Positions 10,064-52,836 of a stretch of 59,501 bases of DNA are shown here, piece after piece (position 1 is the first letter of the stretch; each line of letters opens with the position of its first letter). The position numbers and the translations under genes were made by a program. Source of the DNA: an uncultured Candidatus Saccharibacteria bacterium (GTDB taxonomy: Bacteria; Patescibacteriota; Minisyncoccia; Minisyncoccales; JANBVM01); assembly GCA_964493485.1 (NCBI GenBank), contig CAZBMQ010000006.1:12081-71581 (forward strand), read 5' to 3'. The notes below the pieces were generated by a model, which was not told the origin of the DNA, searched no databases, and worked only from the letters and a program-made list of their open reading frames with translations.

Positions 10064-10064
10064 T

Positions 10065-10466
10065 GTCCTAGCAGGCCCGTAAGCCGAATTCTGTTTTAGG
10101 TGATCATTTATCTTGGCTTTAAGTTGCCTTAAAGCTCATGCGAACTACTTTTTCCTTCAACAAGCCTTGGCTAGTAGCACCAGTACAGGTACACATTGAG
10201 ATTACCTCAGCTTGTCAAAGGTTTGTTCTTGCACCCGATAAGGATTTAGCCGTTTCACCCCCGAAGTTACCTTCGGGACTTATCCAGGGAAAACCTGGAT
10301 ACTTTGAACCTTTCGGTTCAAAGCGTCTCTGCTCGCACCTCTAGCCTTTAAGCCGAGGGGTGTTACCCCCTATCTTTTTAACCCTTGTAAGAATCCAAGG
10401 AGTGGGTGTTCGGACTTTCCTCCCCCTCGAACCCTTCGAGAAGGCGATCACTCGGCCTACTAGGAC
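10065..10466 (-). ncRNA. rnpB: RNase P RNA (about 402 nt)
   Basis: Minus strand has GAGGAAAGTCCG (CR-I) and ACAGAATTCGGCTTAC (CR-V); P1 is GTCCTAGTAGGC/GCCTGCTAGGAC; three hairpins in the P12-P14 region. Confidence 0.95.
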
Positions 10467-44582: not shown

Positions 44583-44976
44583 ATAAAGGTATTAGAAAGC
44601 ACTCTTAAAGTAAATATGGTTTTTTAGAGTTGTCCCGACTATTCTTTTTATTCGAGGATTTGATCCTGGTCCAGGATGAACGCTGGCGGCGTGGATAAGG
44701 CATGCAAGTCGAACGGACCTTATGCTTTGCATAAGGTTAGTGGCGAACGGGTTAGTAACACGTGGGTAACATACCGCCGAGACAGGGACAACCCAGAGAA
44801 ATCTGGGCTAATCCCTGATGGCCTGGTAATTGATTATTCTTTTACCAGTAAAGGGTTTCGCAAGAAACCGCTCGGCGAATGGCCTGCGGCCTATCAGCTT
44901 GTTGGTAGGGTAATGGCCTACCAAGGCTATGACGGGTAGGCGGAGTGAGAGCTTGTCCGCCAACAATGGCACTGAG

Positions 44977-45008
<32 letters not shown>

Positions 45009-45525
45009 CGAGAATATTGGTCAATGGGGGAAACCCTGAACCAGCGACGCCGCGTGCAGGAAGAAGGCCTTCGGGTTGTAAACTGCTTTTCTCCGGGAGC
45101 AAGGGAGTAATCCCTGAGAGTACCGGAGGAATAAGGGGATGCAAATTCTGTGCCAGCAGCCGCGGTAAGACAGAATCCCCAAGCGTTATCCGGATTTATT
45201 GGGCGTAAAGGGTCCGTAGGCGGTCCGTCAAGTTTTCTGTTAAATCTCTAGGGCTTAACCTTAGAGCCGCAGAAAAGACTGACGGACTAGAGGGCGTTAG
45301 AGGTTGATGGAACGCTCGGTGTAGGGGTGAAATCCGTTGATATCGAGCGGAACACCGAAAGCGAAGGCAGTCAACTGGGGCGACCCTGACGCTGAGGGAC
45401 GAAAGCGTGGGGAGCAAAAAGGATTAGATACCCTTGTAGTCCACGCCCTAAACGATGGACACTGGCTATCTGTAGTGTCGACCCTACAGGTGGCGAAGCT
45501 AACGCGTTAAGTGTCCCGCCTGGGA

Positions 45526-45557
<32 letters not shown>

Positions 45558-46029
45558 AGACGGGGGCTCACACAAGCGGTGGATCATGTGGCTTAATTCG
45601 ATAACAAACGAGGAACCTTACCAGGGCTTGACAGGCTAGTGAAATCCGCCGAAAGGCGGACTACCCACAAGGACACTAGCCCAGGTGCTGCATGGTTGTC
45701 GTCAGCAGGTGTCTTGAGATGCTCCCTTAAATGGGGAAACCTGCGTAACCCTTGCCCTATGTTTCACGTGTCATAGGGGACTGCCGTAGATAATACGGAG
45801 GAAGGTGAGGATGACGTCAAATCAGCATGGCCCTTTGATGTCCTGGGCTGCACACATGATACAATGGTCAGGACAATGGGTTGCTAAGGAGAAATCCGGA
45901 GCTAATCCCATCAAACCTGATCTCAGTTCGGATTGAGGTCTGCAACCCGACCTCATGAAGCCGGAATCGCTAGTAATCGCCAATCAGCCATGTGGCGATG
46001 AATATGTCCCTGAGCCTTGTACTCACCGC

Positions 46030-46892
46030 CCTGAAATAAAGTGCCTGGTAGGTAAATCAGCTAATAGGTGACTCGTTTATTAAAAATTTGTTTAAACGAG
46101 AAATCCTATTTTATAGCCAAAAATAGCATCCTATTTTCTGTAAAGAGATAGGGGAGAGCTTGAGGCGAAAGGCAGCCCTCCAACCTTAATGGGTTGAAGA
46201 GATAAGACGACTTCTGTTGGGCGGTCAGGAGGAAGTCTCTTTATCTTTAAGCTCTATTTGAGGGATGCCTGAAAGAGTTGATTTACTGACCCAGGGAGAT
46301 CCTGATAAGGAAAGAAGCTGGTACCTGTCAGGAAGTCAGCGAGGTAATAGTACCTTATTTATCTTGACGCTATGCATGTCCAAAGATAAGATAAGGGAAG
46401 GACCTCACCTATCTATGCTTACTGAAGATTATGTTATTGGATTAACAGATGGAGAAGGAAGCTTTACAGTGTTTCAGAGAAAAATTGGAAAGTACCGTAA
46501 GATAGAGTGTCATTTTTATGTGAAGATGAGAAAAGAAGAAAAAGAATTATTAGAGAGGTTGAAAAAATTTTTTGGATGTGGTCGAGTCTCTTTTCAGAAA
46601 GATAAACGAAGAAATCATAGTGATTGTTATCGCTATGAAGTGGGGAACATAAAAGAATTGAGACAAAAAATAATTCCAGTTTTTAAAGGGAGATTGTTAA
46701 GCAAGAAGAGAAAGAAGGATTTTGAGATATTTTGTAAGATTTTGAAGCTTGTGGAAAGTAAGGCACATTTAAGCGAGGAAGGATGGGAAAGAATTAAAAA
46801 GTTGAAAGGAAAGATGCATAGATAGGGCTCCGCCCGGTACGGGAAATCCGTACGCCGGGAAGGAACGAGAAAGCTAGTTTCAAGCACTCAAT
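46030..46892 (+). mobile_element. Group II (IIC-like) intron in 16S at E. coli about 1402/1403, 863 nt; boundary could shift by 2 nt
   Basis: D1 base CCTGG/CCAGG, EBS1 loop GGGCGGT complementary to the junction ACCGCCC, J2/3 AGC, D3 GAGGT/ACCTC, 11-bp D4, CGC-triad D5, end CTCAAT. Confidence 0.85.
46415..46825 (+). CDS. Single-motif LAGLIDADG homing endonuclease (136 aa) in intron domain IV
   Basis: YVIGLTDGEGSF motif, beta-saddle F.V.MR..E..LL..L..FFGCG.V, Y.V..IKEL...IIP.F; the upstream 50 codons of the track ORF are ribozyme sequence. Confidence 0.92.
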   Translation: MLTEDYVIGLTDGEGSFTVFQRKIGKYRKIECHFYVKMRKEEKELLERLKKFFGCGRVSFQKDKRRNHSDCYRYEVGNIKELRQKIIPVFKGRLLSKKRKKDFEIFCKILKLVESKAHLSEEGWERIKKLKGKMHR

Positions 46893-47167
46893 CCGTCACG
46901 CCAAGCGAGCTGGGAATAGCTGAAGTCCCGCCGATTAAGGTGGGCCTAAGCTAGGTTCAGTGAGAGGGGCGAAGTCGTAACAAGGCACGGGTAGCGGAAG
47001 CTGTCCGTGGATCACCACATTTTATTTTTTGATTGGTCGACTAGGATTGAAATCTGGAATTCGGATTTTAATTCTAGGGGTGTTGATCGAGGAGCCTTTA
47101 AGTCTCGATCGTTGAAATAAGTCGGGACAACTCTAAGAAACCATAAAAAGACTTATATAAAATAATT

Positions 47168-47198
47168 AAAAGCCAGTTTGAATGTACAGGCTTTTTTT
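47168..47198 (+). terminator. Possible terminator after the 16S precursor
   Basis: AAAAGCC...GGCTTTT with a 7-T run; 14-nt loop. Confidence 0.5.
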
Positions 47199-47204
47199 AT
47201 TGAC

Positions 47205-47233
47205 TTGCAAAAATAAAAAAATTGACATAAAAT
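47205..47233 (+). promoter_or_regulatory. Promoter of the YbaK-MTase-tRNA unit
   Basis: TTGCAA, 17 nt, TAAAAT, ending 8 nt before ATG 47242. Confidence 0.55.
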
Positions 47234-47241
47234 TTATTTAT

Positions 47242-47748
47242 ATGCCGGTTCCAAAGAAAGTGATTAATTTTTTAGAAAAGAATAGGGCAAGATATGAAAT
47301 AGTTGAACACCGAACAGTTTACACTGCTTTTGATAAAGTGAAGACATTAAAAGTAAAACCAAATATTGTTGGAAAAACATTGGTTTTAAAAGGAGATAAA
47401 GATTTAATATTTGTGTTGATTCCAGCAAACAAGAATTTAGATAAGAATAAATTTAAAAAAATAGTTAATATTTGGAGAAAAAAACAGGGAAAGAAGAGTG
47501 TGAAAAAGATAGAATTTGTATCAGAAAGAGTAATTAAGAATAAAATAAAAGGAGTGAAATTAGGTGCTATTCCTCCTTTTGGAAGCCTTTTTGGGTATCC
47601 TACTTTTGTAAATAAATCATTGTTGAGTCAGAGAAAGATTATTCTGAATTCAGGCATTCCTGATTTTTCAGTTAGAATTACAACAGCTTCTTTTAAAAAA
47701 ATAATCCCAGATATGATATCTGCAAATTTTGTGAAGGCGAAAAAGTAA
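47242..47748 (+). CDS. YbaK/EbsC-family aminoacyl-tRNA deacylase (168 aa)
   Basis: HRTVYTA, VGKTLV (conserved Lys), GAIPPFG; start moved to ATG 47242. Confidence 0.85.
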   Translation: MPVPKKVINFLEKNRARYEIVEHRTVYTAFDKVKTLKVKPNIVGKTLVLKGDKDLIFVLIPANKNLDKNKFKKIVNIWRKKQGKKSVKKIEFVSERVIKNKIKGVKLGAIPPFGSLFGYPTFVNKSLLSQRKIILNSGIPDFSVRITTASFKKIIPDMISANFVKAKK

Positions 47749-47764
47749 TTTAAATGATTTTAAG

Positions 47765-48325
47765 ATGTGGTATCAAACTTTCTCAATATTTTATGAAAAA
47801 GCTGCAGAAAGAATGTGCCAAGAATGTAAAGAGTTTATTAAAAAGGGGAGCAGAATACTTGATTTAGGTTGTGGTTCTGGAATAGTAGGTAATACATTTC
47901 AGAATTTTTTTAAGGCAGAAGTTATGGGAGTGGATATTACAGATAGAAGAGTACTTCCTATTCCATTTAAAACTATTGATGGAAAATCTCTTCCTTTTCA
48001 GGATAATAATTTTGATGCAGTATTAATTTCTTATGTGTTACACCACAGCCAGGATCCAATGCTTCTTTTAAAAGAAGCTAAAAGAGTGACGAGGGATAAG
48101 ATTTTAGTGTACGAAGATTTGCCGGATGGGATTTTCTCAAGATTATTTTGTGCTCTTCATGGATTTTTATTTGATAAATTATTTCAGAATAAAAATAGAA
48201 CAAGCTTTAAAACAGAAGAAGAATGGAAAAAGGTATTTGCAGATTTAGACTTAAAAATGGTTTTTCAAAAAAAGGTTTCTTTTTTAAACCCAGTTAGAAA
48301 AAAATTGTTTGTATTACAGAAATAG
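47765..48325 (+). CDS. Class I SAM-dependent methyltransferase
   Basis: ILDLGCGSG, GVDI, LPFQDNNFDAV, VLHH; the last base of TAG is G1 of tRNA-Ile. Confidence 0.88.
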   Translation: MWYQTFSIFYEKAAERMCQECKEFIKKGSRILDLGCGSGIVGNTFQNFFKAEVMGVDITDRRVLPIPFKTIDGKSLPFQDNNFDAVLISYVLHHSQDPMLLLKEAKRVTRDKILVYEDLPDGIFSRLFCALHGFLFDKLFQNKNRTSFKTEEEWKKVFADLDLKMVFQKKVSFLNPVRKKLFVLQK

Positions 48326-48399
48326 GGCATGTAGTTCAATGGTAGAACACTTCTCTGATAAAGAAGAGGTCGTAGGTTCGATTCCTACCATGCCCACCA
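48325..48399 (+). tRNA. tRNA-Ile (GAT), CCA encoded
   Basis: GGGCATG/CATGCCC acceptor; CTTCT-CTGATAA-AGAAG anticodon arm; A73 then CCA. Confidence 0.95.
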
Positions 48400-48431
48400 A
48401 CATTGCTTTGCAATATAGAATTTAACACACT

Positions 48432-48505
48432 GGGCCCGTAGCTCAGTTGGCTAGAGCATCGCATTTGCAATGCGGAGGTCAGGAGTTCGAGTCTCCTCGG
48501 GTCCA
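48432..48505 (+). tRNA. tRNA-Ala (TGC)
   Basis: G3-U70 identity pair; TCGCA-TTTGCAA-TGCGG anticodon arm. Confidence 0.95.
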
Positions 48506-48657
48506 CACTTATTTTCTTTCTTTAAGTTTTCCACAAAAAGTTTTTTTGGCTCTCTTAACTATGTTATAATATAAAAATATAGTTTGTTATGGCGCATTTG
48601 ATATGCGACATAACTGTTAATTCTTAAAAGGTCGATAAATAACCTTTTACAAAAAAT

Positions 48658-49335
48658 ATGGTGAAAGACTGGTCAGTAATTACTACTGAGGCTTTACAAG
48701 AAACTTGGAGAGCATTTTTATTCTTTTTACCTAAACTGATTGGAGCAATAATAGTATTTGTTATTGGTTGGCTTATTTCTTCTGCTTTAGGCAGATTAGT
48801 GGCTGAGGCTCTGAAGCTTTTAAAGTTTAATCAGGTATTTGAAAGAAGCAATTGGAAAGAAGCTCTTGAAAAAGCAGATTTGAAGGTAAATCCTTCTGAC
48901 TTTGTTGGAGGAATTTGTAAATGGATTCTGGTAATAGTATTCTTGCTTGCTTCAGTAGACATTTTAGGGTTTGAAGAGTTTGCTGACATTTTAAGCAGAG
49001 TTATAAGTTGGCTTCCAAACCTGATAGTTGCTATAGCTATTTTCATAGTGGCTATAATTCTTACTGATATTTTAGAAAAAATCATTAAGGCTAGTGTGGA
49101 AAAGATGGGGATAGAACATGCAGGATTTCTTGGTACTTTGGTAAGATGGTCAGTTTACTTTTTTGCTCTAGTAGCTATACTTATTCAGTTAGAAGTAGCG
49201 CCGAGTATAATTAATACGTTGTTTACAGGAATAGTTGGAATGTTTAGCTTAGCTTTTGGTTTAGCTTTTGGGCTTGGGGGAAAGGATGCTGCAGCTAAGG
49301 TAATTGAAGATTTCAAGAGAAAAATTTCTTCATAA
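48658..49335 (+). CDS. MscS-associated TM-helix repeat membrane protein
   Basis: Two repeats of (F/W)LP(K/N)LI.A..(V/I)F; GLAFGLGGKD C-terminus; no cytoplasmic cage domain. Confidence 0.75.
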   Translation: MVKDWSVITTEALQETWRAFLFFLPKLIGAIIVFVIGWLISSALGRLVAEALKLLKFNQVFERSNWKEALEKADLKVNPSDFVGGICKWILVIVFLLASVDILGFEEFADILSRVISWLPNLIVAIAIFIVAIILTDILEKIIKASVEKMGIEHAGFLGTLVRWSVYFFALVAILIQLEVAPSIINTLFTGIVGMFSLAFGLAFGLGGKDAAAKVIEDFKRKISS

Positions 49336-49419
49336 ATTTTTTTCATCTGAAATTAAAACAGTAACAGAGTAACAGCTTGTATAAAATTACAAGAATGAGT
49401 TTTATTAGTTGAAGGAGAT

Positions 49420-49471
49420 AAACCCACATCACACATCATAGATATCAGTTTGAAGCGTGGTGTGGGTTTTT
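49420..49471 (+). terminator. Long hairpin with T-run just upstream of the 23S promoter
   Basis: 13-bp AAACCCACATCAC / GTGGTGTGGGTTT stem followed by TT; large loop. Confidence 0.5.
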
Positions 49472-49474
49472 AGC

Positions 49475-49502
49475 TTGACAAATTATTTTGATTTGCTAAA
49501 AT
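49475..49502 (+). promoter_or_regulatory. Promoter upstream of 23S-5S
   Basis: TTGACA, 16 nt, TGn-TAAAAT. Confidence 0.7.
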
Positions 49503-49512
49503 AAGGATATAC

Positions 49513-49569
49513 ATGAAAATGATGAGTATGATGATAAATTATTTAATAAAGAAAACAAGAAGCGGTTAG
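49513..49569 (+). CDS. Putative Met-rich leader peptide MKMMSMMINYLIKKTRSG
   Basis: 5 ATG among the first 7 codons; stop codon overlaps the antiterminator 5' arm; not in the ORF track (18 aa). Confidence 0.55.
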   Translation: MKMMSMMINYLIKKTRSG

Positions 49570-49623
49570 TGTTTGGAATTTTTATTAATTACTAGAGAGA
49601 CCGCTTCTTGGGAGCGGTTTTTT
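49556..49623 (+). promoter_or_regulatory. Mutually exclusive antiterminator/terminator hairpins
   Basis: CAAGAAGCGGT (49556-66) pairs perfectly with ACCGCTTCTTG (49600-10); alternatively AGACCGCTTC/GGAGCGGTTT plus T-run forms a terminator. Confidence 0.7.
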
Positions 49624-49707
49624 GATTAAAGAATGGGAAAGAACTCTACAACTAAATAAAGACAGTAAAAGGCATTATTCGCTAAATTTGTTTTATAGGA
49701 TTTTGGA

Positions 49708-52654
<2,947 letters not shown>

Positions 52655-52690
52655 CCAGAATTCTGTAAAACAAAATAATAAAAGGGCGCT

Positions 52691-52804
52691 TTAGTGGCAA
52701 CTATACTGGCATTGTCCCACCTGTTCCCATCTCGAACACAGAAGTGAAATATGCCAAGGCCGATGATAGTGGGTTTCCCGCGAAAGTAGGTAGTTGCCGC
52801 TAAA
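52691..52804 (+). rRNA. rrf: 5S rRNA
   Basis: GTCCCACCTG..CCCAT..CGAAC.CAGAAGTGAAA, GCCGATG.TAGT, AAGTAGG; helix I extended about 10 bp by flanks, then a T-run. Confidence 0.95.
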
Positions 52805-52836
52805 GCGCCTTTTTGTTTCTTGATATCTAATTTATT

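Follow-up and report, generated by a model that had tools for sequence, protein, structure and literature searches.

A conserved leader in front of the 23S-5S rRNA genes of Parcubacteria with the features of a ribosome-mediated transcription attenuator

How can the output of 16S and 23S ribosomal RNA (rRNA) genes stay coordinated where the two do not share a promoter, and could translation itself act on rRNA synthesis? How bacteria set the rate of rRNA synthesis is a core question of their physiology, and in well-studied model organisms this control is known to act at promoter initiation and by antitermination. Unlinked rRNA genes are common in Patescibacteria (bioRxiv 10.1101/705046). The question is raised by a stretch of 59,501 nucleotides (nt) of contig CAZBMQ010000006.1 (the window; G+C content ∼33%), which carries at positions 49475-49623 a short element directly in front of the genes for 23S and 5S rRNA. 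The DNA belongs to a Nealsonbacteria-like, ultra-small member of the Parcubacteria/Paceibacteria within the candidate phyla radiation. A previous inspection of the letters alone, which we call the sequence-only reading, had recognized here the geometry of ribosome-mediated attenuation. This assignment gains support from our comparison, by which the locus is a conserved regulatory element before 23S-5S across many Parcubacteria lineages. On balance, we lean towards interpreting it as a ribosome-mediated transcription attenuator that controls a separately transcribed 23S-5S unit.

All parts of the element lie on the plus strand. It begins with a σ70-type promoter at 49475-49502, composed of TTGACA (49475-49480), a 16-nt spacer, a TG dinucleotide (49494-49495) and TAAAAT (49497-49502), which scores 11/12 and has an extended –10 region. 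Ten nt past the –10 box, an ATG at 49513 opens an upstream open reading frame (uORF) of 18 codons plus the stop codon TAG (49513-49569, stop at 49567-49569) with the deduced peptide MKMMSMMINYLIKKTRSG. The message would thus be nearly leaderless, with a 5′ untranslated region of about 2-4 nt from the presumed transcription start. The last uORF codons and the stop overlap arm A (49556-49570), the 5′ strand of a putative antiterminator, which consists of CAAGAAGCGGT (49556-49566) and TAGT (49567-49570). Arm A is over 49556-49566 the exact 11-base-pair (bp) complement of arm B (ACCGCTTCTTG, 49600-49610), and this helix is lengthened by TAGT pairing with ACTA (49567-49570 with 49591-49594). The spacer between both arms (49571-49599) forms an imperfect inner hairpin that extends the A:B helix and bears a U5 tract (49579-49583) at its top. 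Arm B is the shared strand: its positions 49600-49607 are also complementary to arm C (GGAGCGGT, 49611-49618), which together with a U6 tract (49618-49623; arm C and tract 49611-49623) gives a predicted intrinsic terminator. The two helices, A:B and B:C, are therefore mutually exclusive, since arm B is common to both.

Folding predictions are in line with these two states. For 49509-49630, the fold of lowest energy is the A:B hairpin (–25.5 kcal/mol, z = –3.6), and none of 200 shuffled sequences folds as well. Folded alone, B:C reaches –15.9 kcal/mol (z = –4.3), and the uORF region forms only a weak local hairpin. Five to seven T residues come after the B:C stem, here as in every related locus inspected, as predicted for a terminator. 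The promoter, the 18-codon frame whose last codons form arm A, the 11-bp pairing with its TAGT/ACTA extension and the alternative GC hairpin with its T-run had all been named by the sequence-only reading, and each of them is indeed present. Its placement of the 23S processing stem 64 nt after the switch needs correction, as the stem starts ∼75 nt past the T-run. The 5′ strand of this stem (49698-49715) pairs with 52646-52663: TGGAGGACAAGA and TCTTGTCCTCCA form a perfect helix of 12 bp (49704-49715 with 52646-52657), which a G-U/A-U extension prolongs to 49698/52663. The regulated genes themselves, assigned with Rfam, follow at 49708-52655 (23S rRNA; LSU_rRNA_bacteria, 2456.8 bits) and 52693-52802 (5S rRNA; 5S_rRNA, 81.2 bits).

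For comparison, we pooled 88 non-identical copies of the element from Parcubacteria/Paceibacteria relatives, 29 of which were found via the neighboring membrane protein and 59 via a DNA pattern in metagenomes. Contigs encoding a 71-72% identical membrane protein include complete Nealsonbacteria genomes of ∼0.65-0.69 Mb. These keep the gene order membrane protein, 23S-5S, mreC and show the same intergenic layout of a hairpin, a TTGACA promoter, a short ATG-initiated frame, arms A, B and C, and a T-run. A protein-alignment scan of one genome per GTDB species yielded 80 loci at 36-65% identity, labeled Nealson-, Staskawicz-, Sung-, Niyogi- and Nomurabacteria, Paceibacterota or Parcubacteria. About 35 of these 80 have a recognizable 23S start within 800 nt, and nearly all of the ∼35 share the same architecture. 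Many 23S genes escaped the regular expression used for their 5′ end, and at these loci, too, Rfam placed a 23S gene immediately 3′ of the element. Gene order and element persist where the neighboring protein is only 36-72% identical.

The pattern used for the metagenomes (AAGCGG N26-56 CCGCTT N3-11 AGCGGNTTTT) describes the three arm cores only and leaves the reading frame, promoter and rRNA genes unspecified. It matched 120 loci, 51 of which have a 23S motif within 600 nt downstream, and Rfam placed a 23S gene 70-400 nt downstream of eight further matches that bear a uORF. The remaining matches mostly lack both promoter and reading frame and look like chance; the 23S check left out three uORF-bearing matches (L154, L194 and L090-type), some of them on contigs that are too short. 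All checked copies are located 55-580 nt upstream of a 23S gene and, in 720 kb of related DNA, every AAGCGG-type three-arm match precedes a 23S gene. In the window, the element occurs as a single copy and was found neither before the 16S gene nor elsewhere.

The promoter is conserved as well. In 11 kb of the window, only the 23S-5S promoter and the 16S promoter reach 11/12, and on the plus strand from 49503 to the 23S gene there is no promoter-like site of at least 9/12, in agreement with the sequence-only reading, which had seen no other clear promoter before the 23S gene. Of 78 related loci, 75 reach 10-12/12 with their best promoter 5′ of the uORF. Between the terminator and the 23S gene, the best promoter-like site of these loci is at most 9/12 in 69 of 78, and no second site occurs at a conserved position. 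Immediately 5′ of the promoter, a hairpin (CCCACATCAC...GTGGTGTGGG, 49423-49472) followed by TTTTT has the appearance of a terminator of the upstream membrane-protein gene that shields the 23S unit from upstream transcription; relatives likewise have a GC hairpin at this place. Because the only strong and conserved promoter sits 5′ of the uORF, polymerases must traverse the attenuator to make 23S and 5S rRNA.

Of the 88 copies, 80 have an ATG-initiated uORF of 8-24 codons with a stop that begins between –2 and +12 nt relative to where the arm A core ends. Shuffled controls contain 6.8 ± 2.4 such frames if the flanks are randomized and 10.0 ± 3.0 (maximum 22) if only the upstream part is. The modal length is 13 codons (42/80). 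Among the stop codons, TAA occurs 39, TGA 27 and TAG 14 times; since all three are used, the stop as such appears to be conserved at this site rather than one particular sequence. Of the 80 stops, 59 start 1 nt and 10 start 6 nt beyond the arm A core. The eight copies outside this definition include a 31-codon frame ending at arm A (L058), frames that run 16-26 nt beyond the core (L063, L071, L108 and L142) or fall 8-13 nt short of it (L024 and L046), and one copy without any frame (L092). In most copies the ATG follows the –10 hexamer by 7-17 nt (mode 10), a short distance from which we estimate 5′ untranslated regions of roughly 0-10 nt.

Arm A is read in all three frames (..AGC GGN stop; ..AAG CGG AAA CGN stop; ..CAA GCG GNN ..). 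Metagenome copies with an alternative frame, one of them from a Kaiserbacteria-like Paceibacterota lineage, still carry an ATG-initiated uORF of 11-17 codons (either ..AAG CGG AAA CGN TAA, encoding ..KRKR, or ..CAA GCG GNN ..). As length and end point persist when the frame of arm A changes, it would be hard to explain these sequences unless translation of the uORF itself were selected. The distribution of ATG triplets within the uORFs points in the same direction: 34 are in frame and 9 out of frame, compared with 14 and 28.5 expected from composition. By contrast, the sequence of the encoded peptide lacks conservation: K, I, N, S and L abound, as AT-rich codons predict, and it varies freely among relatives, as in MDDKKIVLNKESG and MNSLKNLFKKRKR or in MEKKYWKEKIYIKSG and MKNMNKAVMILIKSGSG, the latter two from the Nealsonbacteria relatives with a 71-72% identical membrane protein. 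Over all copies, no residue is enriched beyond the amino acids of AT-rich codons, so that a codon run for one sensed amino acid was not detected. The C-termini ..NKGSG and ..KRKR recur and differ between classes, with ..ILNKGSG found in many copies.

Initiation on this frame, and in the source organism generally, appears from the sequence to be independent of a Shine-Dalgarno interaction. The 3′ end of the 16S rRNA (47009-47023) reads GGATCACCACATTTT, ending in ..GGATCACCACA, and lacks the CCUCC anti-Shine-Dalgarno; Shine-Dalgarno-like motifs precede only 2 of 42 long open reading frames. We considered an AAGGA before the uORF ATG as a Shine-Dalgarno sequence and rejected it: transcription is expected to begin at this motif or 3′ of it, and the 16S rRNA has no CCUCC to pair with it. 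Our literature searches found no account of anti-Shine-Dalgarno loss in the candidate phyla radiation (CPR).

Both helices show covariation. For the 29 protein-found species, the arms were lined up without gaps by their invariant GCGG/CCGC cores and the pairs counted; a MAFFT alignment of the whole region from A to C was discarded because several arms were misaligned. From 15 copies, RNAalifold recovered no helix but the local B:C terminator and is uninformative on A:B. The A:B positions are paired in 86% of cases, compared with 35-49% in slid registers, and 7 of 10 pairs change on both sides. For B:C, the corresponding values are 93%, 33-62% and 6 of 10. For neither helix does any of 500 shuffles reach the observed percentage of pairing, number of double-change cells, pair types or covariation score. 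Concerted changes in all three arms are directly visible in L052 (GCGA/TCGC/GCGA), L056 (GCGGAT/ATCCGC/GCGGAT), L071 (GCGGAG/CTCCGC/GCGGAG) and L084 (GGCGGT/ACCGCC/GGCGGT).

The adjacent A:B position that the search pattern leaves free is, among the 59 metagenome copies, paired in 86% (43% in shuffles), as GC 25, CG 14, AT 5 and TA 3 times, while the corresponding C:B position is paired in 46% only. Because the unconstrained A:B position covaries while its C:B counterpart does not keep pace, A:B is, on this comparative evidence, a real helix distinct from B:C. The occurrence of the uORF in 80 of 88 copies, compared with 7-10 in shuffles, and the covariation in both helices together lift the element beyond chance. 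Of the features that the sequence-only reading had named for comparison with the 23S leaders of related genomes, the uORF and the covarying arms are conserved; the richness in Met codons is not.

Which of the two helices forms is predicted to depend on how much of the transcript is available. If the transcript is cut just after arm B, B pairs with A in 86 of the 88 copies. Once C is present, the mean energy gap between A:B and B:C is 1.8 kcal/mol, with A:B favored in 65 of 88. If the 5′ part is masked as far as 13 nt beyond the arm A core, or ∼12 nt beyond the usual stop codon, as a terminating ribosome would do, B:C forms in 87 of 88. Given the usual footprint, a ribosome at the stop codon would cover arm A and leave arm B free. 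The most likely polarity, as inferred from these models, is thus that a translated leader terminates and an untranslated leader reads through. The sequence-only reading had proposed the same polarity, with poor leader translation causing read-through, and the predicted folds match it.

These observations suggest the following course of events. Polymerase would start at the strong promoter, and the transcript would open almost at the AUG of the short frame (∼13 codons in most lineages, 18 here). Without timely translation, A would pair with B as soon as B emerges, the terminator would be blocked, and the read-through polymerase would pass a boxA-like box and transcribe 23S and 5S. If instead a ribosome initiates on the nascent transcript and reaches the stop, it would cover A and not B; B:C would then form, and this hairpin and the U-tract would end transcription ∼110 nt from the start. 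The faster ribosomes can initiate and finish on this nearly leaderless transcript, the less 23S-5S would be made; spare translational capacity would thereby lower the output, with a cis-acting negative feedback on rRNA synthesis as the net effect.

Two further sequences of the leader bear on this model. The spacer between A and B, mostly 28-38 nt long, contains a run of at least five T residues in 51 of the 88 copies (14 ± 3 expected), mostly with its 3′ end 15-23 nt past the arm A core. We suspect that this U-tract is a transcriptional pause site that sets the timing. Downstream of the attenuator, at 49641-49657, the window carries the sequence GAACTCTACAACTAAAT, which we take to be boxA-like from its resemblance to boxA consensus sequences; a GAACTTTGAAAATTnAAT-type box occurs 10-110 nt past the T-run in most related loci. 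By analogy, this putative site probably loads an rRNA antitermination complex, and a polymerase would gain antitermination factors only after passing the attenuator if boxA systems described elsewhere are a guide (PMC10250234). A similar boxA-like box is found in the 16S leader (GCACTCTTAAAGTAAAT, 44598-44614), and only in the 23S leader does an attenuator lie upstream of the box.

Several points weigh against the attenuator as described. The case is computational throughout and includes an assumed response of the Parcubacteria RNA polymerase to the terminator. At equilibrium, B:C is already more stable without a ribosome in 23 of 88 copies; for this reason, some termination may occur by default, and the polarity could be less simple than described. 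The device is found on 23S-5S only and not on 16S, for no obvious reason, and the conserved U-tract of the spacer is not accounted for by the simple model. The recurrent ..ILNKGSG leaves a role of the nascent peptide and a purely RNA-level constraint inseparable at the sequence level. Finally, the 59 metagenome copies were chosen by a pattern that fixes the helix cores, and the copies are phylogenetically related, so that the shuffle controls overstate significance.

Of the other interpretations, the nearest retains the device and changes its input. If an antibiotic that targets the ribosome, a lack of amino acids or damage to the ribosomes halted translation within the uORF, arm A would never be reached, A:B would form and more 23S-5S would be made; unperturbed translation would mostly terminate. 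The geometry is identical to that of the attenuator as we describe it, uORF attenuators of such logic are known for bmrCD, vmlR and mef/mel (PMC4191407, PMC9226507, PMC4335068), and the recurrent ..NKGSG or ..KRKR ends could matter for stalling. Nevertheless, we consider such a stall sensor rather unlikely: no stalling motif or codon cluster is common to all classes, a single-copy rRNA unit would be poorly expressed if basal read-through were low, and the target is rRNA and not a resistance factor. A particular form of stalling had been suggested by the sequence-only reading, in which a run of Met codons halts the ribosome when methionyl-tRNA is scarce. The window peptide, with five Met among its first seven codons, and relatives that begin with MMM.. 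or MM.. gave reason for this view. Yet the five Met codons of the window are an outlier, since most relatives have the initiator Met only and internal Met makes up 2.9% of the residues over all copies. The excess of in-frame ATG triplets, concentrated at codons 2-7, fits redundant start codons better. Judging from this lack of conservation, Met sensing is largely refuted, and it is the interpretation to which we attach the least credence. The alternative idea of a relic left by a displaced Met-related gene is excluded by conservation of the element over dozens of species at the exact position.

The uORF could also be untranslated or irrelevant, with a ribosomal protein, a Nus factor or a small RNA binding arm A or A:B. 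Ribosomal-protein attenuators exist, such as L10(L12)4 at rplJL of B. subtilis (PMC4538822), and the conserved U-tract and inner hairpin could serve as a binding site. We regard such a factor-driven switch as improbable, as it leaves unexplained the ATG frame in 80-87 of 88 copies, its constant length of ∼13 codons, the occurrence of every stop codon, the persistence of a reading frame when that of arm A changes and the depletion of out-of-frame ATG triplets; nor does the leader resemble any known leader in Rfam. It is still harder to see the element as an independent tiny gene, in which promoter, uORF and terminator make up a unit for a micropeptide or small RNA and the 23S gene is transcribed from elsewhere or by leakage. 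Such a unit would have its own promoter, reading frame and terminator, as found here, and the terminated leader of ∼110 nt would be an abundant small RNA. But there is no other conserved promoter before the 23S gene, the peptide sequence is unconserved, arm A and its covariation with B would be purposeless in a simple gene with a terminator, and the element was never found away from a 23S gene. We judge this possibility very improbable.

If the element acts as a ribosome-mediated attenuator, initiation must occur within a second or so before arm B emerges, and the decision should therefore depend on free initiating ribosomes. Tentatively, and with less confidence than in the attenuator itself, we propose that Parcubacteria gauge in cis how many of their ribosomes are idle: the nascent pre-23S transcript would be aborted whenever a free 70S ribosome loads at once on its nearly leaderless 13-codon frame. 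In that event, ribosome synthesis would be set by a direct loop from the ribosome to the rRNA gene, the long-debated “ribosome feedback” idea, and this in organisms with unlinked rRNA genes and without Shine-Dalgarno/anti-Shine-Dalgarno pairing. A translated leader conserved before 23S-5S in much of the Parcubacteria would physically link translational capacity to ribosome production, and it bears on how 16S and 23S output stay coordinated without a common promoter. The element is small and modular.

The surrounding region of the window shows an rRNA locus interspersed with protein genes. The Rfam-defined 16S gene at 44648-46067 (plus strand) extends, with its insertion, over 44648-∼47021. This insertion of 863 nt (46032-46894) splits the gene after ..CACCGCCC, the 3′ exon restarts with GTCAC.. 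at 46895, and the inserted DNA encodes a LAGLIDADG endonuclease (46265-46825); Rfam called no group I intron at this site. A processing stem formed by AGAGTTGTCCCGAC (44627-44640) and GTCGGGACAACTCT (47121-47134) encloses the insertion-bearing 16S precursor. The sequence-only reading had credited the 16S gene with a promoter and a terminator of its own; the promoter is there (11/12), whereas no clear terminator was found directly 3′ of the gene. Between 16S and the genes for tRNA-Ile and tRNA-Ala (48325-48506, plus strand; Rfam), at 47182-48325, lie two genes, one for a class I methyltransferase and one for a protein with an aminoacyl-tRNA-editing domain. Because no clear terminator lies in between, both may share a transcript with 16S.

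The gene directly 5′ of the element (48658-49335) encodes a membrane protein of 225 amino acids with a mechanosensitive-channel transmembrane-helix domain, the closest named homologs of which are found in Candidatus Nealsonbacteria and other Patescibacteria. It is placed between tRNA-Ala and 23S, within the ancestral rRNA operon, a position kept in many Parcubacteria lineages (loci L001-L085). At the other end of the unit, helix I of 5S rRNA is lengthened by the flanks AAAAGGGCGCTTTAGTGGC ... GCCGCTAAAGCGCCTTTTT and followed by a T-run (52681-52815), and transcription of the 23S-5S unit probably terminates here. The minus strand encodes a class A RNase P RNA (10064-10463), and nearly all other genes of the window are on the plus strand. 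Among the relatives, group I introns interrupt the 23S genes of L163 (7946-8175), L201 (5131-5459) and L059 (7996-8265), and in L180 the 16S gene is located ∼8 kb downstream of 23S-5S, indicating that the rRNA genes there are unlinked or reordered.

That attenuation of this kind is not known for rRNA genes, as the sequence-only reading had remarked, agrees with our searches. Over 49400-49720, no Rfam family reached its gathering score, and at E values up to 10 only chance matches to microRNAs and snoRNAs appeared; in the literature on leader peptides, uORFs or attenuators at rRNA genes or in CPR/Patescibacteria, we found no description of the element. Its closest counterparts are the attenuators of amino-acid operons (trp, his, leu, thr, ilv, pheA, pheST). 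They, too, have a short reading frame right after the promoter, antiterminator and terminator hairpins with one common strand, a U-tract intrinsic terminator before the regulated genes, and a ribosome at the leader stop codon that favors the terminator. Unlike them, the element has neither a regulatory codon cluster nor a conserved peptide, its frame is nearly leaderless, and it controls rRNAs instead of biosynthetic enzymes. A region 1 pairing with the antiterminator strand was not found either: in the transcripts truncated after B, it is arm A that B pairs with (86/88), and an untranslated leader is predicted to read through and not to super-attenuate.

In the uORF attenuators that sense inhibition (B. 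subtilis bmrCD and vmlR, streptococcal mef/mel-msrD; PMC4191407, PMC9226507, PMC4335068), the translation status of the uORF likewise picks terminator or antiterminator, and the response is to the state of the ribosome and not to one amino acid. Those systems control drug-resistance factors via drug-dependent stalling at particular codons, whereas the target here is 23S-5S rRNA and no common stalling motif is visible. Enterobacterial pyrBI and pyrE resemble the element in that the outcome hinges on how closely the ribosome trails the polymerase and in U-rich tracts of the leader that could set the timing. In these cases, the leader frame spans the terminator and a close ribosome prevents termination, while here the frame stops ∼30 nt or more before arm B and the ribosome is predicted to promote termination.

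A boxA-like sequence in the same leader recalls rRNA antitermination by boxA/boxB/boxC and Nus factors (PMC10250234). Here, the polymerase meets the attenuator before it reaches boxA, which therefore offers no protection against termination there; the attenuator would be an additional, earlier decision point, which we did not find described for rRNA operons. Finally, the leaders of ribosomal-protein operons, such as L10(L12)4 at B. subtilis rplJL (PMC4538822) and L4 at the S10 operon, also exert feedback by a ribosome component via a leader terminator. In those leaders, a protein binds an rRNA-like structure and regulates protein genes, while the evidence collected here points to the translating ribosome as the effector and to rRNA genes as its target.

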